Positions 1,920-32,040 of a stretch of DNA of 61,162 bases are shown one piece after another; the first letter of the stretch is position 1; every line of letters begins with the position of its first letter. Source of the stretch: Atractiella rhizophila (Eukaryota); NCBI GenBank assembly GCA_021432655.1, contig MU271200.1, positions 114,159 to 175,320 of the forward strand. The letters are read 5' to 3'. Below the pieces are notes generated by a model. The model worked only from the letters and a program-made list of their open reading frames with translations. It was not told the DNA's origin and searched no databases. The position numbers and the translations under genes are program-made.

Positions 1920-2009
1920 CTAACTTTGCCATTTGAAATGGTTAAAATATTTCAAATGAAAAACAATGGCTTGATAAATGTAATGTGTAAATTTGAAATG
2001 ATTAAAGCG

Positions 2010-5000: not shown

Positions 5001-6129
5001 GAGGGGGATAACAGGAAGGTAGGTTTTTGGTATTTCTCAGCGAGGATTATTCAACCATGATGTGGCCAGAACCGCGAGCCGGATGATGGAATATGTGTAC
5101 AATGTGAGCGTCTCCACTTCTAGGAAGATCGCTTTCTGAACAAGTGATTAAAGGACTTTTCTATTGCGCTGGTGGCACGCGGATTGGGGAAAACGGACGA
5201 TTATCTGCACTTTTTAAATGCTTCTAGGGAATGGGAAAACCTGTGGAACCCCAATTCGACTGACGACGGATTTCATGGGTTCATTATGCCTCGCCTGACG
5301 AATGGCCAGTTCAAATTCGTTTATCCCAAACAGTGCTCGCCGAAGATGTTTCAAAGCTCCTGCTATCTCACAGCACGAGGCTCCGACTTTTAGTGCGTCC
5401 ATCACACGTAACATCTTATGGGGTTAAATATTACATCATACAGCGAGGCAGCAAGTTGGGAATATTCCTTTTTCCCAGCCATGCATGATGCCTACAGGCT
5501 CATCGACAAGATGGGAGGCGATGAACGCTTCGTCGAACGGCTAGATGCTGGCTGGGATAACGGACTGTTGGACATCGGGAACGAGCCCGCCTTCCTAGTG
5601 GCATACATGTACGCGTGGGCAGGTCGACCAGCGAAGACCACAACTCGGAAGCTATGGATATTGGAGCAATCCTTCAATACATCGACCAACGGTCTACCAG
5701 GAAACGACGATGCTGGTTCGATGGGGGCGTTCGTTGTTTGGTCCTACCTCGGCGCGTTCTTATCCAATGATGTGAAATGGAACCCTGATTAATGAAGCAG
5801 GCCTGTTTCCACTTGCCGGAACCCCGATTTACCTCCTCTCCACCCCTCTCGTGCGCTCGTTCGCCATCCTCAATCCTCTCACCTCCGTAACGACGTATGT
5901 GCGGACGGTCAACTTTGATGCTGGATCAAAAAAGCCACAACATATTCAGAGGATCGAGCTGGACGGGGTCGAGTACACTCGCAACTGGATAACACATCAA
6001 GAGCTCTTTAAGGAGACGGAGACAGAGATGGTGATTGAGCTCGGGGAGGACGAGAGCGAGTGGGCAACTAGGAAAGAAGACAGACCGCCAGCTGCAGCTG
6101 GCATTGTGGATGCGACATTTGGACGCTGA
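2010..6129 (+). CDS. Glycoside hydrolase family 92 (alpha-1,2-mannosidase-like), multi-exon, N-terminal signal/anchor
   Basis: Motifs VNPLIGTRNGGHTFAGASRPWGSVK, HDDGTGGTASLGNF, WDTFRVVHPL, GSNAD, IGNEP and LPGNDDAGSMG occur across spliced exons. The N-terminus RRVFLALLLLVSLLLFL is hydrophobic. Confidence 0.93.
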
Positions 6130-6581
6130 GTACCTCGTTTTCTTTAATGGACATGCACTTTGTTTTGTTTTGCAAGTTGTATTTCATTTCTGGGACGGTC
6201 ACTACGATGAGCGCATTGCAGTACTATGGATTCCATTCTTTTAGAACCGTTTAGTAGAACATTTGTCGTTCGTTCCTACTGATCTTTGTAATGTTGCTAT
6301 GGCACAAATTCATTACTGAAGCTTGAAGCATGGTCCATTGATATACAATCAGAACTCAAACCCTGTCCATCGCCAATTAAATTCCCCAGTCAACGTTTCC
6401 CAATCCCAGATGACTTCGTATTCGTCTGTGAAAGCGAAAAGAAGCTCGTCCATTAATGTCCAATCTGAAATCAAATCATGTCCTTTGACAATTTGCCATT
6501 CATTGCTTTCTAACCGTGATAGTCCATGATCGAAGCAGTCGAAAAGAGGCAAAGCGAGGTCCATGCTTCAAAAGAGATCGT

Positions 6582-7550
6582 TTAACAAGTCCCAGGATTA
6601 AACGGATTCTTCATATTCGTTGGAAGTTAGGCGAATACCGTATATCAGCTGACATTTTTGGAAAGCGTAGGACGGTAAAAAGGCTTACCCAGTCTGAACA
6701 AAGATTGATGGTCGGTTGGGCAGACCTGAATGTCCATGGCTTATCAGTGATAAGTTCACGAAGAACAAATGATTGCTCACTGAAATTCGATCAGGTAAGG
6801 TTGGGCCGTACCAGCGGGCTGGTACGCTTGCCTCTCCACAACTCTCAACTGTTTAAAAATCCTGCTTCAGCTCATTATCACTGTGGCTGCAAATGCGACT
6901 GACTGCAAAAGGACCGCGAGGAATGGTTCCATCAGTCGGGAATTGAGCGGGACTGTGTACACTACATTGAGTCGACTTGGGACTGGGAGGAGCAAGCAAC
7001 TGACAGCGTGAGAGGGACGTTTATTTGTGCGCCTTTGGAAGTGGGTGAGAACTCGCCCAAGTCGACCAATTCGCCGCCGAATTGGGGAACAATCGAAACT
7101 ACACAGTGTCACGGATTGTTCGTGTCAGCCCGACAACATTGCATCTGTTGTTGTGAAATCAGCTGACCTTTGATGTGCGTCGTATAGACCTTGTACTGTG
7201 AGTTAGACACGGAGACCGAATTGTACTTGATCGGGATGAACCCTGCGTCAAAAAAAAGTTGTCTTAGAGGAAACAAGACAGTTAATGAGGGACATAACCT
7301 ACCGCCCCAGAGCCAGTTGGTTGTATAGGAAGATCCACCGGCAGGGGAAACCAACGATCCTACCCCGATTTCAATGAGAAATGTCTGGTCTCCCAAATTG
7401 TTCAGCTAAAGGTGACGAACCTGAAGGGCCAGGCGAAGGTGGACACTTGGAAGGTTGAGCCTTGCAATCGATAGGAAGAGGAACGACTGGCGGGGCAGGG
7501 ACACCCTGAAACAAACCAAAAAAGACTGCTGCACAGGCGATGAATTTCAT
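6582..7550 (-). CDS. Small secreted protein, family copy A (8 exons, ~178 aa)
   Basis: Manual splicing gives MKFIACAAVFFGLFQGVPAPPVVPLPIDCKAQPSKC...FSPTSKGAQINVP...PAQFPTDGTIP...LRVVERQAYQP...INLCSDWNPFNPGTC*. All introns are GT-AG and the exon structure matches copy B. Confidence 0.85.
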
Positions 7551-8260
7551 GACTTTCGCAGAAATTAAAAGCAATGAGCCCCTCTCCTCAGACTCAGCTT
7601 GGCCAGCTTTTATGGCTTTCTCGGGAACTAGGACTAGTCAACACCCACACCGTCATGTCCTGGTACTGAGTGATAATATTCAGTTGCCCACTGTTCTCAG
7701 AGCAAACTGCCATAATCGAGATCTGGATGGCATGCCTGGATGTATGCACCACTTGCTGGGCTGACCACTGAGATTTATGAAGTTGTTACGAACACGCACG
7801 TACATGAACCTTAATAATGCAACAATGCGATGGATGTTGACGACGGTGGGTCGAGGCACAGAGGGACCAGCTCCAGGGTAATGCTGGGGCGTTCCCTTGA
7901 ACATTTGGATGCTATGTTTCGGAAATTATTGCATATGTACAAAGATGGTATTTTCTGTGCTGCGCAACTTGCTCATGATGCACTTTTATGGTGTCTATGC
8001 CGAATCAACAAAATCTTGAAGTGATCCTCATTCCGATAAAAAGTTAACATTCTTTTACAAATTACGGTGCTGTCCATTTATTCTCTTTTATCTGCACATG
8101 TTGCACATTGTTGCTGCGAGCGAGCACATATTCATCATTTACGGTAAAACTTAATGAACTCAACGGAACATCAACTGTTATACATTTATGAAACCAAAAT
8201 CGTGTCCCTTGCGAGGTCCGGTCATCAGCCATCTTCCGAACATGATCGAGACTTGATTGT

Positions 8261-9329
8261 TCAACACGTTTGAGGGAGAACTGGATTCTGCAGCCATTTC
8301 AACACGTTAACGAGGTCTTTAAGTGCGGGTTGGTGACATGAAGGCTTACCCAGTCTGTGCAGAAATCGACGGTTGGCTGAGCAGACCTGAATGCCATGCA
8401 TAATCTCAGCAATAGTACATAATCCTAGGAAAATAATTGCTCACTGAAACTCGATCAAGTACGGTACAGTTGCGCCAGCAGGCTGATAGGCTTGCCTCTC
8501 CACGATTCTCAACTGTGTAGAGCGTTTGACATCAGTCATCATCGTTATCATTTTGAAGCGACGGATGGGAAGCTGGGTCGGGGAGACTGACTTGGAAATT
8601 GCCTTCAGGTATGGTGCCGTCCGTTGGGAATTGAGCGGGACTAGAAGCACACATTGAGCACTCTTGACTTAAGTCGGGGAGACTGACTTGGAAATTGCCT
8701 TCAGGTATGGTGCCGTCCGTTGGGAATTGAGCGGGACTAGAAGCACACATTGAGCACTCTTGACTTAGGAGCTAGGGAGGGAAGGAAGAGGACAGGAGCT
8801 GACTGACATGGTGACGGGAACATTTATTTGTGCACCTTTGGAGGTGGGCGAGAACGACCCGAGGTAGATCAAGTCGCTACCAGAATATCGCGGAACGATA
8901 TAAACTGTGTCACCAGCGTCAGTGCGGCACCGTATAGCTGGTGGACCGTGCTCGCCTCGGATGTGTGTGGTATAGACCTTATACTTAGAGTTGGACACAG
9001 AGACGGTGTTGTATTTAATGGGAATATATCCTGGACAAATTTAAAAAATGTTAATGCTGTAGCATCCGTGAACAGAACGCGACTCACCGCCATAGAGCCA
9101 GTTGGTTTTAAGATAAGCTCCACCAGCTGGAGAGACTAGAGATCCTATCCTCATAAATATCAGCAAATCCCAGTCCCTGTTGATAATGATGACAAGTACC
9201 TGAGGGACCGGGAGCTGGTGGACACTTGGATGGGTCAACCTTGCAATCGATAGGAAGAGGAACAATTGGGTCGGCACAAAAGCCCTGAAACAAAGTGAAA
9301 AATACTGCTGCACAAGTGATGAACTTCAT
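8261..9329 (-). CDS. Small secreted protein, family copy B (8 exons; exon 5 duplicated in this assembly)
   Basis: Spliced product MKFITCAAVFFTLFQGFCADPIVPLPIDCKVDPSKC...FSPTSKGAQINVP...PAQFPTDGTIPEGNFQ LRIVERQAYQP...VDFCTDWNPVLPQTC*. Intron positions are the same as in copy A. Confidence 0.85.
8577..8767. repeat. Tandem duplication 95 bp + A + 95 bp (probable assembly overlap)
   Basis: 8577-8671 is identical to 8673-8767 with an extra A at 8672. The mirrored allele has a single copy. Confidence 0.9.
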
Positions 9330-11271
9330 GTTGCTCGCAGAAAATCAAACAATCCCAATCTCATCACACTCAACTCAACCAGGCTTTTATAGGCTCCTCC
9401 CCAACATCCACGGGGTCATGTTAACAACAGTCAACATCAATGCTTCAATGGCCCACTGCTCTCAATGCGCCCAAGCCACATTAATGCGGGCTGAAAATGG
9501 CAACAGCGGACAGGGGCTTCTTCCATTCCTGTGTGTCAGTGAACGTACATGGCGCATCCGCTGATTTCAGTTGGCGTTTTCTGGTCTGGACTTCCGAAAT
9601 GAGCCATCTGTGATAACACCGTTCCTGTTTATGTGGGTGGAAAGGGCGAATGCAGAAGAGAAGAAATTAGAAATGCCCTGCGTCTGCTCTGAGGACGCAG
9701 TACAAGGGAAATATGGGAATTGCGCGGTAATGTGTTATGATGCATCATTAATCTCACCAGTTTTCCGCAACGTACTCTTCACTGTACTGCAGTGCTTCAC
9801 AGCTCCCCCTTCTTTCACCTATTCTCAGAGCCGCAGGTCTGAGCAACCGTATGAGCCAGAGTCATGACATTGTTTGGACGAGAATATTCGAATATCGAAT
9901 GCTTCGTTTTCCGCGCTGAGGGGGTAACTTAGTTTGTTTCGAGTTGTTTGCAAGCCATGTTAGGTTTCAGTGTGTGCTTGTGGTATTATGGTCTCCTTCA
10001 ATGTGGTACAACACAACCTTCACCGTGACTGTATCTTTGGATGTGGCCCCGTGAAGCTGTGACCCCTATCTCATTCCTTCGTTGCTGCAGTCACATATAT
10101 GATACTCGTTCCAATTACAGTTACAAATTACTCAAGCACGACACCATTTCTTATAAATTTATTTACCGTTGTCCAAGCGGGATGTTCCTCCGAAAGCTAT
10201 TGTACTATCCTCATAAATATCAGCAAATCCCAGTCCCCATTGATAATGATGGCGAGTGAGTACCTGAGGGACCAGGAGCCGGTGGACATTGGGATGGTTG
10301 AACCTTGCAATCGATGGGAAGAGGAACAATTGGGTCGGCACAAAAGCCCTGAAACAAAGTGAAAAATACAGCTGCACAAGTGATGAACTTCATGTTGCTC
10401 GCAGAAAATCAAACAATCCCAATCTCATCACACTCAACTCAACCAGGCTTTTATACGCTCCTCCCCAACATCCACGGGGTCATGTTAACAACAGTCAACA
10501 TCAATGCTTCAATGGCCCACTGCTCTCAATGCGCCCACAGCCACAATAATGCTGGCTGAAAATGGCAACAGCGGACAGGGGCTCCTTCCATGTTTGTGTG
10601 TCAGTGAACGTACATGCCGCATCCGCTGACTGCATTTGGCGTTTTCTGGTCTGGACTTCCGAAATGAGTCATCTGTGATAAGACCGTTCCTGTTTATGTG
10701 GGTGGAAAGGGAAATGCGGAAGAGAAGAAATTAGAAAATGCCCTGCGTCTGCTCTGACGACGCAGTACAAAGGGAAATATTGGAATTGCGCGGTAATGTG
10801 TTATGATGCATCATTAATCTCACCAGTTTTCCGCTACGTACTCCTCACTATACTGCAGTGCCTTCACAGCTCCCCCTTCTTTCACCTATTCTCAGAGCCG
10901 CAGGTCTGAGCAACCTAGTATGAGCTAGAGTCATGACATTGTTTGGACGAGAATATTCGAATATCGAATGCTTCGTTTTCCGCGCTGAAGGGGTAACTTA
11001 GTTTGTTTCGAGTTATTTGCAAGCCATGTTAGGTTTCATGATCAGTGTGTGCGTGTGGTATTATGGTCTCCTTCAATGTGGTACAACACAACCTTCACCG
11101 TGACTGTATCTTTGGATGTGGCCCCCTGAAGCTGTGACCCCTATCTCATTCCTTCGTTGCTGCAGTCACATATTCATTCCAATTACAGTTACAAATTACT
11201 CAAGCACGACACCATTTCTTATAAATTTATTTACCGTTGTCCAAGCGGGATGTTCCTCCGAAAGCTATTGT
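9145..11271. repeat. ~1.06-kb tandem duplication (9145-10203 / 10205-11271) containing exon 1 and upstream DNA of secreted-protein copy B
   Basis: Both units begin ctatcctcataaatatcagcaaatcc and end cgaaagctattgt. They differ by SNPs and small indels. A single A sits at junction 10204. Confidence 0.9.
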
Positions 11272-11367
11272 ATTCCAATTACAGTTACAAATTACTCAAG
11301 CACGACACCATTTCTTATAAATTTATTTACCGTTGTCCAAGCGGGATGTTCCTCCGAAAGCTATTGT
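11177..11367. repeat. Tandem duplication 95 bp + A + 95 bp (probable assembly overlap)
   Basis: 11177-11271 is identical to 11273-11367. Only one copy is present in the homologous block near 21496-21590. Confidence 0.9.
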
Positions 11368-11880
11368 TCAACATGGGATTCTTCACCGTTAGGAATGATG
11401 AAGAATTTGAAGTAAGTCAGTCGAGGAATCTTTAGGATCAAAACTTACCGGGTCCAAACAGAGACTGATGGTGGGTTGAGCGGAACTGAGTCAGATGGTA
11501 TCAGCAAAGGTTAATACCGAAAAGAATAAGTGATCACTTACTGAAACTCAATCAGGTCGGTTGCTGGTTCTTCGGCTGATACGCTTGCCTCTCCACGATT
11601 TGCAACTGCGTAGAAAATGCAGTTCCTCATCAGTATAGTCACTACAATGCGAATGTGATTGGAATAGGTTCAGGACGACTGACTCCGAAGGAACCATGAC
11701 GGGAATTGAGCTGGGCTTTGAGTTCCACATTGAGGACCTTGGAATTCAGAAGAAGAACTGAGAGCGACTGACAGAGTGGGGTGAACCTTCATTTCCGCGC
11801 CTTTGGAGGTTGGCGAAAACTCCTTGAGTTGGACTATCTTATGTCCCTTGTGGACAATGGAAACTGGTGGACCATTCAGC
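11330..11880 (-). pseudogene. Degenerate third paralog (copy C) of the secreted-protein family
   Basis: Exon remnants VSIVHKGHKIVQLKEFSPTSKGAEMKVHPTL, PAQFP, LQIVERQAYQP, SAQPTISLC and NPML. There is a frameshift near 11560 and no recognisable signal-peptide exon. A homologous copy lies at about 21550-22100. Confidence 0.65.
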
Positions 11881-13718
11881 ACACCAATGTTATCCGAAAC
11901 GTCACGTTAGAGCCCTTCCGGAAGTCCAGAAATCAAACATTCTAGTGGTTCATGAAGTTCTCCACTACCTGTGTTTGTCCTTCTGAGAAGTCATAATCCA
12001 GGAAAGTAGGGTCATATGCTTTGGAATAAACCGAATGTGCCCCCCTTTTGCCTCTTATCGCTTCAGCGGAACTGCACGTTCTTGACATTGCCAGGTTATC
12101 CACCGTTCGCGTATTCACGAACTAGATAGCTACAGTTGACCGTCGATTGAAACAGTGTTGCTCTGAGCTGTTGAGCATTGACTTGACATTGACCGCCAGT
12201 AAATGTCTACGATCTATTTTCATTTGATTTCCATTCCAGCTCTCGCAGCGTTCCACAATAGTCTGAGTTCGCTGTTACGGAAACGCTCCAGACTCCTGAT
12301 AAACCTGTGGTGGAGATATGCCAGATTGATGCGTAGCAAACGTCGCTCGACATACACATACCGAATTGACTGACTTTGAAAGTTGAACCTTTCCCGCACG
12401 TTGGTAGTTCTCCCCTTCATTGAGAAAGACAAGTACCAGCCGTCCGGAAAAATGCTTAGAAAATTAGATTCAGGATGTCTCTGTGCACTGGATGGGTTTG
12501 CTGTAAGGTACTTTACGCGCCGCTGATATCTTCAGATGAGCGGAATGCCACTTTAGCGTTCGGTGAATGGGGAGATTCCGTGAATCCTAACTTCCCTGAC
12601 AGGCTTTAACGAATTCTGATGGATGTCGCGGGACAGAACCCTTGCAAACATAGGATGTGAATCTCCCCAGTGACAAGTGGTCTCGTAACCAGTTTACATT
12701 GCTAGCAAGAAATGAGATTATCCACACGCTCTCAGCACACCTTAGAACAGGCGGCTGGATGCCTACGGGGGTCTGGTGCCTCCTTGAAGAAAAAATTCAA
12801 AAAGGAATGTCCATGAAGGATCACATAAGGATTCATGGCTCAGCCGGTGGCCATTGCCTAAGTCACTCGAGACCAACAACCTTTGTAGTGAGAGAAATGT
12901 GAAAAACAATTGCCATTCAAACTTTCTGATTCATCCTACAACACCACTGACGTTCGGAGCTTGCACACACACCTTGGATCCTTTGGAGTTCAAGAAACAT
13001 TATCTATTAAGATGACCCAACATCAAGCAAGGTTTTGGGGGAAATTGCACGTTCATGGGACGCGATCGAACGCAGGACGCGCCCTTGCTCTTCAGCGATC
13101 AGAGTTGGACGCTTGTACGACCACGCTCGTTGCCACTTCCCGGAGTCTGGCCATATGATACCACTCCGCCTAGCGTCACTTTATGCACGTCCTTCCACCG
13201 TGATGTTCCAGGTCTATCCTCCCACAGCTGGTCTTTGCCTGAACTTGATTGTCAAGAGAAGCCAGAGAAGAAACTTGAACGGAGTGATCTCAAATTTGAG
13301 TTTGCGGAATGACGATGGAAGAGGAAATTTCTCATGAGCTTGTGTGCAGGGGAATAGCAGAACAATGTCAATTTCTAATTGACCTGTGGTTGCGATAGCA
13401 AGAGAACCCATTGTATTTAAGGACACACTATTCAATAGTTGAATTTGTAACCTTTAGACAAGTCGCTAAAATAACATGAATATTATGGGCATTGATGCAT
13501 CAATCTACACTGTCAGAAGTTCTTTTCCAATCGCCAAAAATTCAGCTGCTTTGCTTCTAGTTGGACTTGACTGGAATTCTACAACCACCACTCGTCTTTA
13601 ATCTTCATCACTCGGCTCGGCTAACCCAACCGACGATCTCGAGCATAACGACGGAAAGAAAGGTAGTAGTGACATCCCTTTCTACACGCGCACTAGTACT
13701 CGGAGTGATCGCGGTGAC

Positions 13719-13990
13719 ATGAAAAAAAGTTCGAAGCGAAAGAATCAAGAGAGTGATGAGGAGCAGGTTGCGGAAGGAGAGGTCAGTTTTCTTTGCTGCT
13801 TTTTCTCTGCTGCAGCGTTCATCATTCCCCACCCAACTATCACGATGAAAGCCGAACCGGGTTCTCGTTGTCTGTGTGCAGACGGTAGACGTCTCTTTCA
13901 CTTTTACCCAGCCACACACCCTCGACTTCCAAAGCATCAAGCATCTCCTAACTCAACTCCTTGCCGACACCATATCAGACGAATCCTTTC
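13719..13990 (+). CDS. BCP1: BCP1 5' fragment truncated by the N gap (duplicate of 23096-23367)
   Basis: MKKSSKRKNQESDEEQVAEGE / TVDVSFTFTQPHTLDFQSIKHLLTQLL, nearly identical to the full copy. Confidence 0.8.
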
Positions 13991-14015
13991 NNNNNNNNNN
14001 NNNNNNNNNNNNNNN
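13991..14015. other. Assembly gap (25 N)
   Basis: Run of 25 N directly abutting the mirrored block. Confidence 1.
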
Positions 14016-17000
14016 CTAGAGATCAGAGAGGTCGACCACCTCGAATAGAATTTTGGTTGACCGAGATACCGCCACTCAGCGCAAGACAAGTGCCTACGAT
14101 GTCGTAATTGTAAAAAATTTAAACAGGTCCTATATAAGGGTAATTTATGTTGTGGCAGAGACACAGGTTGAGATTCATATTCCAGATATGGTGTGTGTAG
14201 GCTCCGCTCGTGCCAGGTGGTCGATATGCCACGGCGTGACTGCGACCACTGTGTCAAATATAGCAAGGCGCTATAAGACCGTCGCTGAACTAGATGGAGC
14301 CGAGAAAGAGCGGGTGGAGGTTCCCACGTGTTTATTTACAAGGGCAGTGGTACAGTCAGTCGAGGACAGGAGAAGGAAGGGAAGGATCAAAGATTCAGTT
14401 CTCACGAGTTACACACGAAGATCAGGGCGAGTTAAGGGTTGCCTGCCGTGGTATGGACTTCCGTTAAAGGTTCAGTCAGAGGGGCTGGGTCGAAGGGTAG
14501 GCAGCGAAGTTTTACTATTGCTACTACTGACTACAGTTTGCGAGATGTGTCAACTCTTAGCACCTCTCCGTTCGGATAGTCGGTCGACCGCGTTGACATG
14601 GCATGAACTAGCTCAAAGTCACTCGTTAATAAAAGGATCGTAATACATGATAACGACTCTAATACGTACCGTAAGTCCAGACGAGTCGGTTGGCAGCTAA
14701 AGACGTGTCTGACCCATTCGGAAGTACAGTGGTTGGGCGTGAATTTCTGGAGCAATTGCACAACTTTACGGACGTCTTAGGTCAAGAGGGAGTTTGCACA
14801 ACTTGTTAGTTCAGAGCTAGTACAAGCCTTCTACCGACTACTGCAGCGTTCCCTGTGCTAAAACCAAAGTATTTACATATTGTCAACTACAAGGCAACTC
14901 AAGTAATTCAAAATGGCATTTACTACTTATACACGAGCGAGCGTCGTTGTTACACGTTTTACACGTCCATTTTCTCTTATTTACCTGTCGTGGCATTAAA
15001 CATTTTCTTACAATTGAAAAATAGCCTTACTCCTAGTGAAGTTCTAAAACAACTAAGCCGTATCTGTGGTATTTTCACGTAGTACTCGTTCAACGCGTCG
15101 TGTCTTTTATGGTAGAAACATGTATACGTTATTAAAGGCTTTTGTATCGTAGGTTTACAAATTCCCTTGCGGGGTCGTAATGGGACCTCGACCAGGGAGA
15201 CACGGAGCTGGGTGGCAGCAGTTGTAGGTAGCGTAACAACGTAATAATTCCAAGTGACATGCACGCACAAGCATCGTTGAAGTATTTAGAGTCACACCAG
15301 TCGGGTCGTTCACCACGTATGTAGGTCCGTCCGTAGGTCTAGAGCTAATACCGTCAAACGAGAGTCTTGTCACCCGTTGACTTATAATAGTGAGTCATGG
15401 TCCTGTACTGCCACACCCACAACTGATCAGGATCAAGGGCTCTTTCGGTATTTTCGACCGGTTCGACTCAGACTCCTCTCCCCGAGTAACGAAAATTAAA
15501 GACGCTTTCAGTACTTTAAGTAGCGGACACGTCGTCAGAAAAAACCAAACAAAGTCCCACAGGGACGGGGCGGTCAACAAGGAGAAGGATAGCTAACGTT
15601 CCGAGTTGGAAGGTTCACAGGTGGAAGCGGACCAGGAAGTCCAAGCAGTGCAAAATCGACTTGTTAAATCCTCTGGTCTCTAAAGAGTAGCTTTAGCCCC
15701 ATCCTAGCAACCAAAGGGGACGACCACCTAGAAGGATATGTTGGTTGACCGAGACCCCGCCATTCAGTGCAGGGAGTAATTGACACAACAAAGGAGATTC
15801 TGTGGGAAAAAAAACTGCGTCCCAAGTAGGGCTAGTTCATGTTAAGCCAGAGGCACAGATTGAGTGTCATGTGCCAGATATGCTGCGTGTAGTTTCCAGT
15901 CGACTAAAGTGTTGTTGTCTACGTTACAACAGCCCGACTGTGCTTGTTAGGCACTGTGACACATCAAAGCTAACAAGGGGTTAAGCCGCCGCTTAACCAG
16001 CTGAACCCGCTCAAAAGTGGGTGAAGGTTTCCGCGTGTTTATTTGCAGGGAGAGTGCGACAGTCAACGAACGAGGGGAGGGTCAGGGTTTCAGCTGAGTT
16101 ACATTACATGTGTCAGGGCGAGTTAAGGGATGACTGCCTTGGTAAGGAGCGCCAGGAAAACGTCAGTCAGCGTAAACATCGGTGTCACTATTACTCGACT
16201 TCGTCCGTAAAAATTTGTCAACTCTCAGCACCTCTCCGTTCGCATGGTCGGGCGTCCATGCCGAGTTGGAATGGACTAGCTTAAAGTCACTCGTTAGTAA
16301 ACAAGAAGCACTTGAATAGTGACTATTCGGTACCTGTAAGTCCAGACGGGTTGGCTGGTAGTTAGAAACAAGTCTGACCCATTCGGAAAAAGGTAGGAAG
16401 CGAAAGGTTTTAGAGTCGACTATATGGCCTAACCAGATTGAAGGTTGCTTATACTTCTTAGGGAAATTAGGACCCTGAACAATTTGCTAGAGAAAACTTC
16501 GTACCTGCAGCGAAATGAGAAAAGCTGACGAAGCTAGTACCTGCTAGCGCCAATCTTTCGTTACTTACCGTTTACAATTTCCTGTACTAAATCAAAGACT
16601 AACCTGTAATTACCTGCTCGAAGAAAAGCGAAAGTGTTGCTTGTACTTCAGCTAACCCTAACCCTTTGCAACTGACCGTTTAAGTTAACCGCTACCTGTC
16701 CCAAACTCAAGATTACATATAGTTGCCTGGTACGAAGTTCGAAGTCATTACTTAAACACGGTATCGTTGTAATGTAGTTCCTAGTTATCCTTGCTTGCTG
16801 GCTACAAGATGATTTGCCAAGATTTTCTTACCTTAGGTATCACGACGTTACGCGAGTAGATCACTGGCAGGGTCTTTGCTTTATGTTGAACGTTTTGTTT
16901 TGTTTCACGTACAGGTAATTTCTTTTGCTCCATGAGTCGCAGGTTTACAGCGTAGGTGTTACGGTCGACGTCGACCGCCAGACAGAAGAAAGGATCAACG

Positions 17001-20000
17001 GGTGAGCGAGAGCAGGAGGGGGCTCGAGTTAGTGGTAGAGACAGAGGCAGAGGAATTTCTCGAGAACTACACAATAGGTCAACGCTCACATGAGCTGGGG
17101 CAGGTCGAGCTAGGAGACTTATACAACACCGAAAAGAACTAGGTCGTAGTTTCAACTGGCAGGCGTGTATGCAGCAATGCCTCCACTCTCCTAACTCCTA
17201 CCGCTTGCTCGCGTGCTCTCCCCACCTTTCCTCCATTTAGCCCCAAGGCCGTTCACCTTTGTTCGGACGAAGTAATTAGTCCAAGGTAAAGTGTAGCCAC
17301 CTTCTTGCGCGGCTCTATCCTGGTTTGTTGTTTTCGGGGGTAGCTTGGTCGTAGCAGCAAAGGACCATCTGGCAACCAGCTACATAACTTCCTGACGAGG
17401 TTATAGGTCTCGAAGGCTCAACACCAGAAGCGACCAGCTGGACGGGTGCGCATGTACATACGGTGATCCTTCCGTCCGAGCAAGGGTTACAGGTTGTTAG
17501 GCAATAGGGTCGGTCGTAGATCGGCAAGCTGCTTCGCAAGGAGCGGAGGGTAGAACAGCTACTCGGACATCCGTAGTACGTACCGACCCTTTTTCCTTAT
17601 AAGGGTTGAGCGACGGAGCGACATACTACATTATAAATTGGGGTATTCTACAATGCTCACTACCTGCGTGATTTTCAGTCTCGGAGCACGACACTCTATC
17701 GTCCTCGAGACTTTGTAGAAGCCGCTCGTGACAAACCCTATTTGCTTAAACTTGACCGGTAAGCAGTCCGCTCCGTATTACTTCGGTACTTTAGGCAGCA
17801 GTCAGCTTAACCCCAAGGTGTCCAAAAGGGTAAGGGATCTTCGTAAATTTTTCACGTCTATTAGCAGGCAAAAGGGGTTAGGCGCACGGTGGTCGCGTTA
17901 TCTTTTCAGGAAATTAGTGAACAAGTCTTTCGCTAGGGGGATCTTCGCCTCTGCGAGTGTAACATTTGTATAAGGTAGTAGGCCGAGCGCCAAGACCGGT
18001 GTAGTACCAACTTATTAGGAGCGACTCTTTATGGTTTTTGGATGGAAGGACAATAGGGGGAGGGTACGGCACCATTTCTGAGTAGCGGACCGTGTATGGG
18101 TTTGAGTAAGGAGTTGAGATACAGAGGAGCTGGAACGGTGGAATGAGTGGTAATCGGTACGTGTGTTGTCTCAGCCTATTTTGTTTTGTGTGGAGGTTAG
18201 TAGTCCTCCATGTCAGCGTAGAAAGAAGTAGATGTGAGCGAAACTAAATCACCTTACCTTGTTTCTCCCCAACGGTATGCCGAAGTATTCGCACAAGGGT
18301 TAGTTACGGGAAGCATTACAAGAACTGTATTGACAGGCGCTCGTTTCTTAGACGTAACGAGGGGAAGAGTAGGAAATCCCACCATAGCACGTTCTCCTCG
18401 TTCTCGAATGCGGAACTGACATAGGACTATTAAAGGTCCAATCGGCAGACACTCTCTAGTACCACTCCTCCGAGTGGCTCACTCTTCCTGTAAGCTGTCA
18501 GACCTTCTATAGGGTACACCAGCATTTATAGACGTGACTAGAAGTTGAAGAGGGAAGGACTGAAGTACTAGTTCCGATTGGTTACTCGCGAGAGTGGTAG
18601 AGTCGGACATGGAGGCCGACCTCGTATTGCTTCTCACCTACCTGCTGAGATTTCCACAGGGTTTACGTTATGGTTGATAGTTTGTACCCTCAAGGGAGGC
18701 ATAAGGTGGGACCTAACAGAGGGCACTGCAATAAGCCCGAGTTTATTCAGGATATCTCGCTTGAGGTTTTCAAGAGGAAGGAGAAGAGGCGAAGAGCAGG
18801 TCCAGGTTTCAGTTGGAAGTTGGATAGAGGGTTGTGGCTCAAGGTGAGCAGAAGAGGACGGGAGCGCTCGAGCAGCTTCTGAACACTCGACATTTCGCCC
18901 TACGACAGAAGCCGCATGCTTGTCCGCACGAGCTATCTTGCCATGCTCTGCGGTTACGCCTGCTCGACACACTTAGCGAACGCCCAAGCACCCTTGACCT
19001 ACTCGCGCGGCACCGGGCGACGCTGGAGCTACTTATTCCAACTTACGTATCCTCTCCTCCCGCATGAGTACCACTCGAAGCATTCGGGAACTCAAAAAAC
19101 ACGCTAGTATGGCTAAGCAAGGGCTTATTTCCTGCTGCAAGGATGTTCGAGGAGTCAGCTAGTACGACAGTACCTTTCCTTATACAACCCTCCTGTTTGC
19201 AGCGTAGACACCATAGATCCGTCTTTACACGGATAAGAAGGAAATCCATTAATCCTCCTTCCTCTCCCTTGCCTGTCCCATATTTGGCAGAGGTTTACTT
19301 CCTGCTTTTCTGGGTCTAGGCTGGTGGGACTAACAAGGAAACCTCAGGTAGTCTAGGGTTGACTATAACGGGGACGGCGGTTTGTAGTGGAATCAAGGAG
19401 TTAAATTATAACTCTACTTCTGCTCCTGCTTGCTGTACTTTCTTACCACGTTCAGCAAGCGGTTCAGATGGTAGTCGCGTCCAGCGCTACGAAGGAAACT
19501 CTTTTCCAAACCCCCTTATGCATTTAGCTACATCACGGCGTGCAAGTCACCAGCGATGAAGTCGTGCTTGGGGTTAAGTAATCCAGTTAGAACTTTTATA
19601 GGGCCGAATCGGTGATAAGGAGGTGTGTAGTCTATGTTTTTAGTCTCCCCTCCTTTCATTTCCTATCTCATTTCTTTATTGACTGGCTACGAGGGTAAGT
19701 GGGACAACTGTCGTGCCTCTGCAAGGAGCTGGTGCGTGGCGAGGAGTAGCGGCACAAGCTGCCTTCGATACAGCGTGGTTCATCCCTTGTCGAACTTCAA
19801 AGGGTTCCTGCGGCAAGGGGGTCAAGGTAGCAGTACGTCAACACTCTAAGGTCACTACCCTGACAGCAGACTCTGCTTCGGTCGTCGCAACAGTCACCTT
19901 TCTCACAGACGCTGGCGACGTTAAACCCTTCTAGTCACTCCAAGACAATATGTTCACCGTACACGTACTTCTTCTCATATTTCAGCCACATTTTCATAAC

Positions 20001-20528
20001 CGCGCGGCCGATGTCTACCGACTCGTACAATCTTTTGAAGTGATGACAAGTGTTACTCGACGATTCGCTACAAACTTTGTTGTACGAGTTGGATACATGA
20101 AGAGTGGGTAAGATTCGACAATGTCCCCGCTCGATAGCTCAAGAGGCTGTAAGGTTTGAAGTGAGCAAATGAGTTGTTTTCCCTTCAAGTGTCGACCGTG
20201 TACGGTTACAGAGTCACCAGTTCAAAGACTTACTAGTGTATAAGATTGAGCAACCTACTCGCTCTGGCATTCAGGGTATTATTACCTTCTCGAAAACCGG
20301 TAAGTTCTTGGTCTTCTTCACACTAGGTGTGACGTCGGTCGCTTCCTGGCTTGGTTCGTTGTTAAAATTCGACAGAGGTGTACAAGCGCGCGCCTCTGCT
20401 TCTTGCCCTTCGCATGACGTGTAGCTGTTTATCAAAGCCCTTACGCCTTACTGGTCTTTAGTATCTGACGGGGAAGAGGACGATCTCGTGGAGGGGAAGG
20501 TTACTCTCTTTATTCTTTCAACACATAA
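14016..20528. repeat. Mirror copy (reversed, not complemented) of 2545-9144
   Basis: 14016 ctagagatcagagaggtcgaccacc read backwards equals 9120-9144. About 16880-17000 read backwards equals 6061-6185. 20461-20528 read backwards equals 2545-2613. Scattered SNPs and indels separate the two copies. Confidence 0.98.
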
Positions 20529-23367
20529 CTATCCTCATAAATATCAGCAAATCCCAGTCCCCATTGATAATGATGGCGAGTGAGTACCTGAGGGACCAGG
20601 AGCCGGTGGACATTGGGATGGTTCAACCTTGCAATCGATGGGAAGAGGAACAATTGGGTCGGCAGAAATGCTCTGAAACAAAGTGAGAAATACTGCTGCA
20701 CAAGTGATAAACTTCATGTCGCTCGCAGAAAATCAGAACAATCCCAATCTCGTCACACTCAACTCAACCAGGCTTTTATATGCTCCTCCCCAACATCCAC
20801 GGGGTCATGTTAACAACCGTCAACATCAATGCTTCAATGGCCCACTGCTCTCAATGCGCCCAGAGCCACATTAATGCTGGCTGAAAATGGCAACAGCGGA
20901 CAGGGGCTTCTTCCATTCCTGTGTGTCAGTGAACGTACATGCCACATCCGCTGACTTCAGTTCGCGTTTTCTGGTCTACACTTCCGAAATGAGCCATCTG
21001 TGATAACACGGTTCCTGTTTATGTGGGTGGAAAGGGCAAATGCAGAAGAGAGGAAATTAGAAAATGCCCTGCGTCTGCTCTGAGGACGCAGTACAAAGGG
21101 AAATATGGGAATTGCGCGGTAATGTGTTATGATGCATCATTAATCTTACCAGTTTTCCGCTACGTACTCTTCACTGTACTGCAGTGCCTTCACAGCTCCC
21201 CCTTCTTTCAGCTATTCTCAGAGCCGCAGGTCTGAGCAACCTAGTATGAGCTAGAGTCATGACATTGTTTGGACGAGAATATTCGAATAGCGAATGCTTC
21301 GTTTTCCGCGCTGAAGGGGTAACTTAGTTTGTTTCGAGTTGTTAGCAAGCCATGTTAGGTTTCAGTGCGTGCGTGTGGTATTATGGTCTCCTTCAATGTG
21401 GTACCACACAACCTTCACCGTGACAGGACCTTTGGATGTGCCCCGTGAAGCTGTGACCCCTATCTCATTCCTTCGTTGCTGCAGTCACATACTCGTTCCA
21501 ATTACAGTTACAAATTACTCAAGCACAACACAATTTCTTATAAATTTATTGACCGTTGTCCAAGCGGGATGTTCCTCCGAAAGCTATTGTTCAACATGGG
21601 ATTCTTCACCGTTAGGAATGATGAAGAATTTGAAGTAAGTCAGTTGAGGAATCTTTAGGGTAATGTAGCATCAAAACTTACCGGGTCCAAACAGAGACTG
21701 ATGGTGGGTTGAGCGGAACTGAGTGAGATGGTATCAGCAAAGGTTAATATCGAAAAGAATAAGTGATCACTTACTGAAACTCAATCAGGTCGGGTTGCTG
21801 GTTCTTCGGCTGATACGCTTGCCTCTCCATGATTTGCAACTGCGTAGAAAATGCAGTTCCTCGTCAGTATGGTCACTACAATCCGTGTGATTGGAATAGG
21901 TTCAGGACGGCTGACTCCGAAGGAACCATGACAAGAATTGAGCTGGGCTTTGAGTTCCACATTGAGGACCTTGGAATCCAGAAGAAGAAGTGAGAGGGAC
22001 TACCAGAGTGGGGGGAACATTCATTTCCGCGCCTTTGGAGGTTAGCGAAAACTCCCTGAGTTGGATTATCTTATCGCCATTGTGGACAATGGAAACTGGT
22101 GGACCCAGTCATTCAGCACAACAACGTTATTCGAAACGTCACGTTAGAGTCCTTCCGGAAGTCCAGAAATCAGACATTCTAGTGGTTCATGAAGTTCTCC
22201 ACTACCTGTGTTTGTCATTCTGCGTCATAATCCTGGAAAAGTACGTTCATACGCGTTGAAATGAACAGAATGTGGACTCATAACCGGTTTACATCGCTGG
22301 CAAGAAATGAGATTATCCACACGCTCTCAGCACACCCCAGAACAGTCGGCTGGATGCCTACGGGGGTCTGGTGCCTGCTTGAAGAAAGGAATTCAAAAAG
22401 AAATGTCCATGAAGGATCACACAATGATTCAGTGAGTAGGTGGCTCAGCCGCTGGCCATTGCCTAAGTCACGCGAGACCAACTGCCTTTGTAGTGGGAGA
22501 AATGTGAAAACCATTGCCATTCAAGCTTTCTGATCCATCCTACGGCTCGAACACTACTGACGTTAGGAGCTTGTACACACGCGCCTTGGACACTTTGGAG
22601 TTCAAGAAACATTATCTATTAAGATAACCCAACAACATCAAGCCAAGTTTTAGGGGGAAATTGCACGTTCATGGGACGCGATCGACTGCAGGATCTAATG
22701 TGGACCTGGGAATGTGCAGGGGAATAGCAGAACAATGATGATTTCTCATTGACCTGTGGTTGTGATATCAAGTGAATTAATATATTTAAGGACACACTGT
22801 TCAATAGTTGAATCTGTAACCTTTAGACGAGTCGCTGAAATAACGTGAATACATGAATATTATGGATATTGATACATCGATCTACACTGTCAGAAGTTCT
22901 TTTCCAATCGCCAAAAATTAAATTCAGCTGCTTTGCTTCCAGTTGGACTTGAGTGGAATTCTACAACCACCACTCGTCTTTAATCTTCATCACTCGGCTC
23001 GGCTAACCCAACCAACGATCTCGAGCATAACGACGGAAAGAAAGGTAGAGTAGTGACATCTTTTCTACAGGCTTACTCGGAGTGATCGCGGTGACATGAA
23101 AAAAAGTTCGAAGCGAAAGAATCAAGAGAGCGATGAGGAACAGGTTGCGGAAGGAGAGGTCAGTTTTGTTTGCTGCTTTTTCTCTGCTGCAGCGTTCATC
23201 ATTCCCCACCAAATACCCCGATGAAAGGCTGATCTGGTTTTTCGTTGTCTGGGTGCAGACGGTAGACGTCTCTTTCACTTTCACCCAGCCGCACACTCTC
23301 GACTTTCAAAGCATCAAGCATCTCCTAACCCAACTCCTCGCCGACACCATATCAGACGAATCCTTTC
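20529..23367. repeat. Diverged direct copy of 10205-13990 (probable alternate haplotype or paralogous block)
   Basis: Colinear similarity from ctatcctcataaat to gaatcctttc. It lacks the segments at 12040-12679 and about 13078-13342. Confidence 0.9.
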
Positions 23368-24236
23368 CTTACAATGAGCTTGCCGACTTAATCATCGCTC
23401 AGAAGGATGTAGGGAACTTTGTCAGGGTCGCTGATAGTGAGGAGGATGATGGAGAAGGAGAAGGAGGCAAGGAAGAAGAAGCAGAAGATGACGCGAAGGA
23501 GGCAGAGAAGGAAGAAGAACCGTATCCGGGAGACGCTTACGGGTTCCTCACCCTTCTAGACTTGGATGAGCACGGTGTGCGCTTCTCCATCTCATTCTAT
23601 TCATAACTCGAACGATACTGAATCGAATGACGAACATTACAGACCAAACCTGCACTGCAAACCCTCCTCACTACGCTGGCTTCCTCCTGTCCGCACTCAA
23701 ATCCCCTGCACCAAATCCTGTCATCTCCCCCTTCGTCCACAGCCCTAATCCTCGGCGAACGAGTGGTAAACATGCCGCTAGACCTCGTTCCCCACCTCTA
23801 CCGTCTCCTCGCCCAGGACCTCCTCTCTGGAAACAAAAAATACAAATCCTATATCTTCCTCTCCCGCGTTTTTGTGCCCACCAACGACCACGAGCTCTCC
23901 TTTACTGGTACCAGCACTAACAACGAGGGAGAGGACAACAAGAACGAAGGGGAGATGCCACCGAAGAAGAAAAAGAAGAAATCAAAGTCAAATTCGAACT
24001 CAGGTGGGAGAGGGGATGTGGTGAAGGACGAGGATATGTTCCCTTACCACCCCGAAACTGTCTTCGTCGCCTCTCTCGCCTCTTCATCTTTCACCACTCC
24101 TGTCAAGTTAGCGCCGAAGCATGAAGATGGGTTGGCGAGTATACCGGGGGTGGAGAACGCTCTAAGGGTGATGTGCGTGCCTGGGGAGAAGTGGGAAGAG
24201 TTGGTTGAGGGAGTGGGGGGCTTCATGAGCGGCTAG
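23096..24236 (+). CDS. BCP1: BCP1/BCCIP family protein (60S biogenesis, Mss4 export)
   Basis: TVDVSFTF...DFQSIKHLLTQLL...ELADLII...DAYGFLTLLDL...LILGERVVNMPLDLVPHLYRLL...FPYHPE. Confidence 0.9.
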
Positions 24237-24805
24237 TAATGCTATACTCAATAGGCTGAGCTTCGTGGGTCGGGCACTCGTATAAAACTCAATAAAACCT
24301 GACTTCATCATACCCAATAGGCTGACAGTGATGAATTGATATGTATGTGGATGGAAAGGAGAATGCATGCATTGCGATGATTTGAATTTTGAGTATATTT
24401 CCACTGGACGTCTGACATCGAAAATCGATTCGAGTCGGGAAGACATAAAAGCGTTGAACGTAATTGATGCAAAGCAAGAGAAGGACGACTCTGTTTGGCC
24501 GTTTCTGCAACCTAAGCTTGGGATAACTCTGTAGACTAAGATGGAGGAGGTAAAGCACGACAGGTCCAGCAAGCGAGTGCTCGTGAGAGAACTGGAGATC
24601 GATCACCAAAGAAGCACAAGACAAACTCCGAAAAAGGGAGAGATAGAGAGGGAGAGACATCAGGAACAGCCGAATAAATAACGTTATTCCTCCGTCTTGC
24701 CACTGAAAAGAGGAGGAAGGGAGACGTAATCGATAACCACTGCAACTGAACGATGACGAGAAAAAAGTGAAGGCGGCCACATCGATCGATGTCTATATCC
24801 TTCTC

Positions 24806-27800
24806 TTACGGTATAGTCGCTGCCCAAGCAACCAAATCTACGTCGGCGACCTCCATCTTCTTCATCCATCTATGCCTCTGCATGCCAGTCCATCATTAAC
24901 AATCATCTCCATGAATAAAGCATGAAAGAACAAACCAAAAGTTGTTTCGGTGTCGGTCTCCTATTTACATCCTTCCACAGACACGCGTCCACGAAATCCG
25001 AACACTCATCGGGGAACTTTCCAGACGGCAACTTCGGGGCAGGCTCGTTGACGATGTTCTGCAAGAGTTCGAGGATGGACATCTGCTGATTGCCTCCTTG
25101 TACTGAAACCCCAGTCACTCGCACACTGCGTCGCTTCTCCGCCTTCCCACCTGCCCCAATGCCCATCATACCCATCATACCCGCGGACGGTGGCATGAGC
25201 AGTGATGCTCTCTTTGCCCTCTGGTCCGCCTCTCGCTCAGCCGCTCGAAGGAGCGCCTCCCTCCTGTTCTCAGGCCGAGAGGGCGAGAGGGTTTTGTCCC
25301 GCTCGTGAGGGTTTTGTCCCGCTCGTGAGGGTTTTGTCCCGCTCGTCCTCAGACTCTGGCTCCTCTTCGAGGGTGTGAAGTGGCCGCTCCATGTCGCTGT
25401 CGTTATCGTCGTCGTCGTCCTCGTTGGCAGAAAAGGGAAAGTGACCGAGTGCGAGTTCGATGAGCGAGATACCGAGGGACCAGACGTCGGAACGGACGGT
25501 GTATTCTGAACCCTGAATACGCTCGGGCTGTTGAAATCCACCCAACTCCTAATAAGCTTGTGGTGTAAGGGAAAACGAGGACACGCACACTCATATAAGT
25601 GCTGGTGCCAACGAAAGTAGCAGCGATACTGTTGACCAATTCACCGCTCACTCCAAAATCGCAGATTTTGACCTGTCCTGCTGAATTGAAGAGGATATTG
25701 GCAGGCTTAACATCTGATATTCTATCAATTCCTGTCATGCATGGCAACAAAGGGAAGCAAACCTCTGTGAAGGATTCGATGTACGTCGTATAGGTACGTG
25801 AGTCCTGTGACAACCGCAAAAGCGATCTTTCCAAGGATGTCAACAGGAATGGGACCCGTCTTTTTGTAAATTCCGTCAAGAGATCCTTTGTCCATGAACT
25901 GTCGACGACATTCTGTCAATTCTTACTGAAAACCTAGAGACGGAAATAACGCACCTCCAAGCACATGCAGACGTGAGGATCTGCGACGTATGCTCCATAA
26001 AACGTAACAATGAATGGATGATCGCAATCTCTCAGAATCTGAAGCTCTCTAACGATCTGTTTTCTAACAGCAGGTTTCCCTTCAATATGCACCACTTTCC
26101 TAGCCATGATCTTCCCGCTCTGTTTATGAACCACTCTAGACACAGTCCCTCCATTTCCATGTCCCAGCTCCCCATTCTCGATCCCCTCAAAGTCTTCAGC
26201 TTTTACCTCCATCTTTCCTTGCACCTCGAGATCGGCTGTAGCGAGAGAGGACAAGGAGCTTTCTGGCGTTTTGGGAGTAGAAGCTGCTGAAGAGATGCTG
26301 CTGTGTCGAGAAGGAGGGGAATCCGAATTCGACAATGGGGCAGGACGACGCTTGTTCTTCGTCGTCGTTCCGCCGGGAGATGTAGTATGGACCTCGAGCA
26401 CGGATCCAGAGGAGATGCTCTCCTTCCTCGGCGCAGGAGCGAGGAGTGGAGGGGGGCGATGCTTTGCTTTTTGTTCCGAGATGGAACCTTCACGCGATCG
26501 GGAAGGGACGACAGGTTCTTGCGACTGATTCGACATGAGGGGAGGAGGACGATGTTTCGGTTTCGGCTGCTGGATCGGGATGCTGGGCTTGGATTGGGAT
26601 TGGGAGGTGGAGGTGGAGGAAGAAAGGGATTCCCTGCTCGCAGAAGAATTGAGTGATTCGCGTGACTTGTTACCGAACAGAGGTGGGGGACGATGCTTCG
26701 GTTTTGGTGCAGGTATGGGGAGCGTCTCGGACACGTGAGGGTCGGTGTAGGCAGAAAGATCAAAGTCCAAGGGGCTGTCATCGACTTCTACCTCGATCGC
26801 GGGCTTTGGACGCGAGGTGGCTGAGTTATTCAGAAGAGGCGAGGGTCGTCGTTTCACCTTTGGAGCAATATCGAGAGGAGCAACAACTGGCACGGGTTCC
26901 GATTCGAAGCCAACATTGCTTAGGTGATCAGAATCTGTTTCGACTTCCCCTACTTCGACACGGACGCTAGTGATTTTTGGCATCGCAGGCGAGTTAAGGA
27001 GAGGAGGTGGGCGAGATCGGGGTTTGGGAGATGGAGTGAAGCGAGACGGTTGAGGTTCGGGCTCCTCTTCCTCTAACACTGGTTGCGGAGGAGGGGTTTG
27101 AGAAGACATCGAATTCGAGAGGCCAAGAGCAGGGGGGCGACGCTTAGGTCTGGGGTCCGTGCTATTCATCGTCCGTTCTTCTCCGAAGCTAGGAACCACC
27201 TGGGTTTGATTTTGGGAGATGTTTGGTGCACTGTTCGAAGCTGAGAGAGGTGGAGGACGTTGCGGTCGCAGGCGAGTGGACGGCCTCCTCTCAGGAGCAT
27301 TTTGAAACTCCTCTGGCAGCCATCCGAGCTCTGACTGACTGAGTGAACTAGTCCGCGTCCCTGAACTTGAATAAGTCGCCGCTGAGCTTCCCCGACGGGA
27401 ATATTCTGCGGGAGAAGAGACTGAGGATGTAGACGTGGAAGAGGAAGAGGCGGAATGTTGATGTCTGTATCGACTGGAAGGAGATGGACCTGCACTGGTC
27501 AAAGCAGGCGAATATTCTTGTGCCACAGCCATACCTAAGCCGCCGCCAGAAACGAAACCCTTTTTGCTGCCGAGCGAATCTCCACTCTCGCTCCTCTCCC
27601 TCATCCCAATCGAATAAGCTGAAGAAGGCTCGACTCTACCTTGGCTAGTCGTCGGTCGACTGCCTGATCCTCCCAAACTTCTTACACTCGATACACTCCC
27701 TTCTCTGCTCCTGCCGCCATATCCAACGCCTGAACCGACACCTAAGCCACCATATTCTCCTGCAGCGTAACCTTGAGGTATGGCGGGCAAATCCTTCGGT

Positions 27801-30176: not shown

Positions 30177-32040
30177 ATGGCAGCACCACCTCCTCCACAA
30201 TCACCTCTTGCTCGTTACCGAGTGCTTTCTCCAAAATGTGGCCTGAGAGTCTCACCATTGCAACTTGGAGGTGAGCGCCACGACCAATGATTGTTACATG
30301 AGATTGATAAAGAGGTAGCAATGTCATTGGGACAAAAATGGGCCTTGTGAGCTTCGTACGCCAGATGTGGTACGGGAGATGTTGAGAGCTGCCTCTAGCA
30401 TGGGGACAATGACAAAGGAAGCGAGTTTTGAATTGCTGGATGAATACTATAAACTTGGAGGTGAGCTTCCGTTTGATGTTCATGTCATGGAACATTCTAA
30501 AATAATTTGTTCTTTAGGCAATTTCAGTAAGCAAGTGCCTGTCTCTCCGCCTACTGCCTTAACATTTCTGAAGTTGATACGGCCAACAACTACCATGTGC
30601 GCATTTTAGTTCCTAAGTAGATATGGAACTGAAGGTGAGATAGGAAGGCGAAAGCGAGCAATGGATCGGAGAATGGATGAAGAAAAATGGGAACAGGGAA
30701 GATATGGTGATCGCGACGAAGTACACATCTTTGCTCGAGTCCGCAAAGTCGTCGCACAAGGCCAACTATATTGGTAACGGCTCTAAATCTCTGCGTCGTT
30801 CGTGAGTGCAAGCTATCATACTGTGGTCATGGCTGATACAGAGGACAGTGTGGAGAAGTCGTTAGAAAATCTCCAAACGCACTATATTGACTTGTTGTAC
30901 CTCCACTGGTAGTAGATCACGCTGCCTGCTAAACGCGGTGCTGATGAGAAGGGTAGGTGGGACTACACCACGTCAATTGAGGAAGTCATGCAGAGCCTTA
31001 ATGTGCTGGTAACCCAAGGTAAAGTGCTATACCTTGGAGTAAGCGATGCACCAGCATGGATCGTGAGCAAAGGTAGGCTATCCGCAAAACTTTCCAGCGA
31101 CTGGCAGTTGTTCAAAGTAATCTTAGCCAACCAGTATGCTCGCGATCATGGTCTGGCCCAATTCGTGGTGTATCAAGGTCAGTGTCATTTGCAGTCTGAC
31201 GGAGCCTGACTGAGTGATCAATAATTTGTAGGAAAATGGTCCACTCTTGAACGCGATTTGGAGACTGAGTGCATCCCCATGTCTCTTGATGAGGGGATGG
31301 CCATTGCTCGTACGCTTTGGCTAACAAAACAACAGGTAGCTCACAATCAATGGTAGCATATGGTGTGCTTGGTTCTGGGAAGTTCCAATCGAAAGCCGTA
31401 AGTCTTCGCAATCAAGGCATACCGTAATTTACAATAGGGATTAAGGCTATTGAGAAACGCGAGAAGGAAGGGGAGGGACTCAGGACTTGGATAGGTCGCA
31501 ACAAACAGGATTCCAAAGAAGTGAGCTGATTTGCCAGTCACCCGTCCGAAAGCTCTTTGCTGATAATCCTACAAGATCGAAATGTCCAACGTTTTGGAAA
31601 ATATTGGAAATGAGCTAGGTGGTGCCAGCGTAACAGCAGTGGCTCTTGCATACACGCTCCAGAAGTATCCATATGTCTTCCCCATCATCGGTAAGTCACA
31701 AAAAACCAGTAGCTAGCAAACTAACGCCTGCACAGGAGGACGGAAGGTTGCCCATCTCCACGACAACCTCAAAGCTCTAGAAATTCAACTTGAGCCTCGA
31801 CATTTCGAAAGCCTGGAGAAGGTTTTGGAACACAGATGGGGATTTCCTGTAAGGGTTCTTTGTCCCTTGGTCACGCTGACGCTTGCTTCTCAGTACACCT
31901 ACTTTGGACGTCGACCAGGCGACAATTTCTTCATGAAGGCTTCTGGCCATTATGACTTTGTCAGCCCTCAGTCCGTAAGTCTACCGCTCATGATTGGCCT
32001 CAGCTGATTTGAATGTCAGGCTATACTTCCAGCAAAGTAG
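30177..32040 (+). CDS. Aryl-alcohol dehydrogenase-like aldo-keto reductase (AAD/NorA type), many short exons
   Basis: [80 protein letters not shown]. The product ends ...ILPAK*. Confidence 0.92.

Follow-up and report, generated by a model that had tools for sequence, protein, structure and literature searches.

A 6.5-kb block on an Atractiella rhizophila scaffold is almost certainly the second allele of a neighbouring locus, string-reversed during assembly

The window analysed here, a stretch of 61,162 nucleotides from Atractiella rhizophila (assembly GCA_021432655.1, contig MU271200.1), carries one locus twice on the same scaffold, at 2545-13990 and at 14016-23367, on either side of a gap of 25 N. 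These copies are haplotype 1 and haplotype 2 of the locus, and the scaffold thus holds a false haplotype duplication. In the haplotype-2 copy the first 6513 letters, and only these, are printed in reversed order without being complemented. This part, 14016-20528, is called block B in the following, and its partner in haplotype 1, 2545-9144, copy A. We conclude that block B almost certainly does not exist as DNA and is instead the haplotype-2 allele of 2545-9144, the letters of which were reversed in silico by the assembly software. The original prediction, made from the letters of this stretch, had likewise seen a string-reversed second allele in it; the mirror alignment, the bias of the differences towards one codon position and the alleles found in forward orientation in sequencing contigs all agree with this reading.

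The mirror match and the layout of the two haplotypes

When the letters of block B are reversed without complementing, they align with 2545-9144 over the full length, which confirms that 14016-20528 is a mirror image of copy A. The global alignment comprises 6630 columns with 6363 matches, 120 mismatches (70 transitions and 50 transversions) and 147 gap columns, 117 of which hold a letter of copy A only and 30 a letter of block B only; 6363 of the 6483 aligned pairs are identical, and the gaps amount to 31 indel events. A BLAST comparison of the string-reversed window as query with the window itself returned the match in two pieces: 20528 down to 14393 runs along 2545 to 8671 (97.4% over 6158) and 14487 down to 14016 along 8673 to 9144 (98.5% over 472). 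Further reverse-only matches of at least 100 bases were not found in this comparison. The correspondence of 14016 with 9144, also part of the original prediction, is exact, as the final 60 bases of 2545-9144 equal the final 60 of reversed 14016-20528 and the terminal 265 bases are without any difference.

The match is real. Local alignment of block B with 2545-9144 scored 12 in forward, 12 in reverse-complement and 16 in complement orientation, against 5736 for the reversed string; none of the 6483 31-mers of the printed block recurs, on the one strand or the other, in the rest of the window, against 3879 of 6483 once the block is reversed. Because of these differences chance is excluded. Block B is a complex coding sequence of 46-49% G+C. 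With the other orientations at noise level, it was also correct to say that the block is hidden from BLAST as printed.

The gap at 13991-14015 is the sole run of N in the window. Past 20528 the sequence is in normal forward orientation and resembles 9145 onward, with 94%, 92%, 87% and 90% identity in successive BLAST pieces; overall the forward matches between 9145-13990 and 20529-23367 range from 87 to 95%, and the duplication ends where 23367 corresponds to 13990. Haplotype 1 continues beyond copy A, from 9145 up to the gap, and starts there with a tandem pair of units, U1 (9145-10204) and U2 (10205-11272), which are about 94% alike, and haplotype 2 has one such unit. From 20529 onward the latter is identical to U2 (10205 onward) for 95 bases and to U1 (9145 onward) for 33. 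The earlier statement that base 20529 continues exactly as 9145 does is true for these 33 bases, but thereafter the identity is 94.1% over 1059.

The boundary 9144/9145 marks both the start of the tandem repeat and a rise in allelic divergence, which is about 2% before it and at least 6% after it. If block B is un-reversed in place, its equivalent of 9144 is followed directly by the equivalent of 9145 at 20529, the two being neither separated nor overlapping. In the printed order it is the 9144-equivalent that adjoins the gap and the 2545-equivalent that adjoins 20529.

Genes of the locus and the coding signature of block B

Copy A is the forward allele and contains a GH92 gene and two small protein genes. 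The gene for the GH92 glycoside hydrolase lies at 3142-6129 on the plus strand and has short GT..AG introns. All seven stop-free frames of copy A within 3142-6129 match profiles of the N-terminal or the catalytic GH92 domain (PF17678 and PF07971), in one case with a score under the curated cut-off. The contigs of X3, one of three public sequencing runs described below, are spliced and place four introns in this gene at 3643-3691, 3789-3832, 3865-3922 and 3997-4044. The first small protein gene (7109-7637, minus strand) consists of the frames 7371-7637 and 7109-7405 and begins with an N-terminus that, by eye, is hydrophobic and signal-peptide-like. Its paralogue, the second small protein gene, is spliced and extends over 8100-9344 on the minus strand, the coordinate 8100 being approximate, with frames 9108-9344 and 8765-9040; judged in the same way, its start is likewise hydrophobic and signal-peptide-like. 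Four CT..AC joints in X3 fall into this gene, at 8288-8349, 8385-8442, 8513-8591 and 8641-8807. Seven of the eight introns seen in X3 thus measure 44-79 nt and one 167 nt. A profile search found no Pfam family for either small protein gene. The first exon of the second one spans 9144/9145, and its haplotype-2 copy is therefore cut by the reversal at 20528/20529. Elsewhere in the window there are genes for eRF1, MKT1, a mitochondrial carrier, an F-box and a DEAD-box protein. This gene content and the short introns point to a eukaryote, in all probability a fungus.

The two alleles differ in the manner of a gene evolving in forward orientation. For the 503 GH92 codons of copy A that lie in Pfam matches, each codon was compared with the aligned letters of reversed block B, inserted letters being skipped. 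Along these codons 26 bases differ, at the first, second and third codon position 2, 2 and 22 times, respectively (binomial P for at least 22 at the third position, 1e-7); 19 codon changes are synonymous, five are non-synonymous and none creates a stop. Three synonymous changes which the original prediction had pointed out, CTG/TTG at 5565, ATC/ATT at 5574 and CCC/CCT at 5586, are present. In the frame 8765-9040 (minus strand) of the second small gene all five differences are synonymous and at the third position; the CCG/CCC change which had been reported for the last exon was not found there, the nearest one being GGG/GGC at the codon ending at 8860, next to the four other synonymous ones. 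Furthermore, the ends of all eight introns defined by the spliced X3 contigs are retained in reversed block B.

The third-position bias and the kept splice sites can only have come about while the block was being read in the same direction as copy A, and the reversal thus came after. The earlier view that it evolved as a normal coding allele is thus substantiated by codon positions, splice sites and, as set out below, contig alleles. As printed, 14016-20528 encodes nothing that we could recognize: in a profile search none of its 24 stop-free frames of at least 70 aa matched GH92, and the single profile match obtained was to an unrelated family and below the cut-off of that family.

Five single-base insertions of block B fall into Pfam-matched GH92 exons, behind 3479, 3501, 3560, 5929 and 6042. 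The former three sum to 3 bases; in the last exon the reading frame is shifted by those behind 5929 and 6042. The five insertions may be genuine or may stem from errors in long reads that were left unpolished. Since no short read can be mapped to a reversed string, block B would have remained unpolished, and this may explain single-base insertions in exons. The original prediction had spoken of a recoverable second haplotype. That the block is the second allele is in line with this; however, with five such insertions in the GH92 exons the recovered sequence is not a clean one.

Second-allele variants in public sequencing contigs

Three public runs were found with 15529-25528 as the query: X1 and X2, which are DNA runs of one sample from organism A, and X3 from organism B. 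The data used are Logan contigs, not raw reads, with a single depth value for each contig, and were mapped on 2001-22000 of the window at 90% likeness. X1 and X2 may come from the source sample of the assembly itself and are not independent of it. The word shares for the query, half of which is block B, were 0.37, 0.35 and 0.21 in these Logan contigs and were not used as support. All 18 bins of 2001-14006 are covered by Logan contigs in X1 and X2, copy A included, and in the nine bins of 14007-20009 the contig depth is 0 in X1, X2 and X3; this was likewise not used as support, uncovered parts being equivalent to no finding in Logan contigs.

Real sequencing contigs contain the private alleles of block B, and they carry them in forward orientation. 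Among the variant letters listed for contigs on copy A, 27 of 40 share both place and letter with the reversed block (208 further variant letters lie beyond those listed); with 120 differing sites in 6600, chance would give about 0.2. Listed indels give the same picture: nine of the 12 on copy A are of the block type, five of them exactly and four within 1-4 bases. A contig joint from 8576 to 8673 skips 96 bases, which are the 96 columns of the alignment that hold copy A only. Between 6337 and 6813 both alleles are found in one sample, with a depth of 200 of 353 in X1 for the other allele, from which it follows that the organism is heterozygous. Finally, contigs of X1 and X2 join 9144 straight to sequence of the 10205 type, whose first 95 bases equal those from 20529 on, a junction that an un-reversed haplotype 2 should show. 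The remaining listed alleles on copy A, 13 of 40 letters and three of 12 indels, are not those of the block. Either the three runs hold further variation, or they stem from a somewhat different isolate.

The contigs also bear on the part of the duplication that is written correctly. Between 9145-13990 and 20529-23367 substitutions predominate (the first unit, for instance, has 44 mismatches and 10 gap events). We had considered that 9145-13990 might be raw long-read sequence and rejected this idea, as the differences are mainly substitutions and contigs of X1 and X2 map there. Judged by their sequences, 9145-13990 and 20529-23367 are diverged alleles and not the product of raw read error. The latter stretch, into which contigs map from 20529 on, is the correctly written start of the contig to which block B is attached.

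Origin of the reversal and its meaning for the assembly

To our knowledge templated synthesis yields copies that are either direct or reverse-complemented, and it never yields a reversed one. Because templated processes make no reversed and non-complemented copy, the reversal has to be an operation on a string of letters. Within this artefact reading, block B is probably sequence that was added on the left to the contig starting at 20529. A break between contigs is to be expected at 9144/9145, since there the divergence jumps and the tandem repeat begins. This contig would then have been lengthened on its left side into the gap, with long reads as the probable source, and the extension might have been prepended nearest base first, in the order in which the bases were found. 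A different slip would have the same result, namely that a string from the opposite strand was complemented and not reversed. Either of these slips would lead to exactly the printed order, with the 9144-equivalent at the gap and the 2545-equivalent at 20529.

The same letters could also have arisen from a separately assembled haplotig or scaffold component of 6.5 kb whose reverse complement was left half done during scaffolding, gap closing or file conversion, as complementing without reversing yields the same letter order and the gap bounds block B on one side. We regard such a component as rather unlikely. On un-reversing, the block joins 20529 without gap and without overlap, which is expected of an extension of the same contig and would be a coincidence for a separate piece; the join therefore favours the extension. 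Still much less credible, and with no positive sign in its favour, is a reversal after assembly: the deposited assembly would then be correct, and the block would be due either to a record corrupted in handling or to a stretch planted as a test. The span begins at the 25-N gap and ends at the boundary of divergence and repeat, and these are landmarks of an assembly, not arbitrary cuts. Moreover, block B carries real variants of the second allele, so it is no mutated copy of copy A.

The idea that the genome itself contains the mirror copy, be it a natural mirror repeat or the product of some unknown process, is so improbable that we attach practically no weight to it. Natural mirror repeats are short, of low complexity and adjacent, for example homopurine-homopyrimidine tracts which form H-DNA. 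Block B has in common with them that the symmetry of its letters is seen in reverse only. It differs from them in being 6.5 kb of complex, coding-grade sequence at 46-49% G+C, in the distance of 4.9 kb between the arms and in showing allelic divergence. Its codon bias and splice sites make sense only backwards, its alleles are found forward in real contigs, and no templated process is known to make reversed copies.

An in silico reversal of the second allele can be compared with two kinds of artefact that have been described. False duplications split by a gap form a described class (Ko et al. 2022, Genome Biol, PMC9516828). As far as the class is characterized in the parts of that text available to us, our case resembles its heterotype form in that two allelic copies lie on one scaffold with a gap in between (2545-13990 and 14016-23367 flank the 25 N), in that haplotype-specific variants are found in reads (here, among those listed, 27 of 40 letters and nine of 12 indels, in contigs), and in that genes are falsely duplicated or cut. 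In contrast to that form, part of the second copy is reversed here without complementing: 20529-23367 aligns with 9145-13990 in direct orientation, whereas 14016-20528 does not (12, 12 and 16 against 5736) and aligns only as a reversed string, a case for which those parts of the text give no parallel.

The second kind is the overfilled gap. In the accessible parts of the PBJelly paper (English et al. 2012, PMC3504050) a gap is defined by at least 25 N and 'overfilled' gaps are described; according to corresponding parts of PMC3504050, PMC9635638 and PMC7757076, in such gaps both flanks have been extended and no overlap between them is detected. Going by these parts, our case is similar to an overfilled gap of the PBJelly type in the persistence of the gap and in an N run of 25, the minimum of that program, a length which is not program-specific. 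Extension of the flanks by kilobases may be a further point in common: the layout is compatible with an extension of the right flank by 6513 bases, and 9145-13990 may or may not be one of the left flank, its differences from 20529-23367 being mostly substitutions, not indels that resemble read errors. The original prediction had named PBJelly as typical of a 25-N spacer. This program is a compatible candidate, since the length fits its gap definition, but the writing of such a spacer was not found in the available parts of the three texts, nor was a bug of orientation. A full-text search of the literature for string-reversed blocks in assemblies gave none among the matches listed; these concerned synthetic control sequences and unrelated topics.

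A block of this kind is missed by the usual checks because aligners try only the forward and the reverse-complement orientation. It escapes self-alignment, the purging of duplicates, read mapping and polishing. In the present case 6.5 kb of meaningless sequence were added to the assembly, and from the 24 stop-free frames of at least 70 aa, which reach up to 207 aa, a gene caller could make orphan proteins. Such errors can be screened for by comparing each assembly with its own string-reversed copy. The same window also contains two direct duplications, at 31220-36970 and 38591-42637, whose copies abut exactly and differ at the level of alleles; they cut conserved genes and may be false tandem duplications. 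Gene counts taken from this assembly therefore need care.

As the organism has no mirror DNA, the biological interest of the finding is low and its value lies in data quality. It is conceivable, though on balance we doubt it, that a systematic bug in the extension of contig ends or in gap filling is at work, and that more reversed blocks of kilobase scale stand beside short N spacers in this assembly and possibly in others from the same pipeline. If so, these would escape BLAST as well as read mapping, polishing and the purging of duplicates, the genome size would be inflated, genes at the junctions would be cut and orphan gene models would be seeded. Each of these blocks would then hide a recoverable, unpolished stretch of the second haplotype.

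Probable false duplications downstream of the reversed allele

Two direct duplications lie further along the window. The first consists of 2.9-kb units, 31220–34094 and 34095–36970, which abut exactly and share 97.4% identity. Both units carry eRF1 frames, the first copy being cut in mid-frame at 34094, and in one frame of 789 nt, 12 of the 14 differences between the units fall at third codon positions. Judged from the sequence, the pair is probably one locus falsely duplicated where a gap was closed, with the second allele placed in tandem. The units diverge from each other to the same degree as the two alleles of the reversed locus, copy A (2545–9144) and the un-reversed block 14016–20528.

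The second duplication has 2.0-kb units, 38591–40613 and 40615–42637, with 99.5% identity and one spare base (40614) between them. Their junction creates a frame on the minus strand, 40281–40817, which combines a match to the C-terminus of MKT1 with a match to mitochondrial carriers. The stretch 38591–42637 is probably another duplication made by the assembly, yielding a chimeric gene.

Differences between the assembled haplotypes

Haplotype 1 holds two tandem units of 1.06 kb that are 94% alike, U1 and U2 (together 9145–11272), versus one such unit in haplotype 2. In the contigs of X1 and X2, two DNA runs of one sample, 9144 is joined directly to 10205, the first base of U2, and the contig depth in bin 9338–10004 is far below that of the adjoining bins. 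U1 may be a true extra copy of haplotype 1, or it may be a further artefact. The GH92 exons of the reversed block contain five single-base insertions relative to copy A (behind 3479, 3501, 3560, 5929 and 6042 in copy A numbering); these are either true frameshifts of haplotype 2 or unpolished read errors.

Small genes and expression

A tandem family of small genes on the minus strand (7109–7637, 8100–9344, about 10160–10424 and 20529–20720) encodes proteins whose hydrophobic N-termini are almost the same and which match no Pfam family; they look like putative small secreted proteins. The family sits where the locus diverges most.

Over window positions 2001–14000, the contigs of run X3, from organism B, are spliced at GT..AG; X3 is therefore an RNA data set, from a related organism. 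This shows that the GH92 gene (3142–6129, plus strand) and the second small gene (8100–9344) are expressed in organism B.
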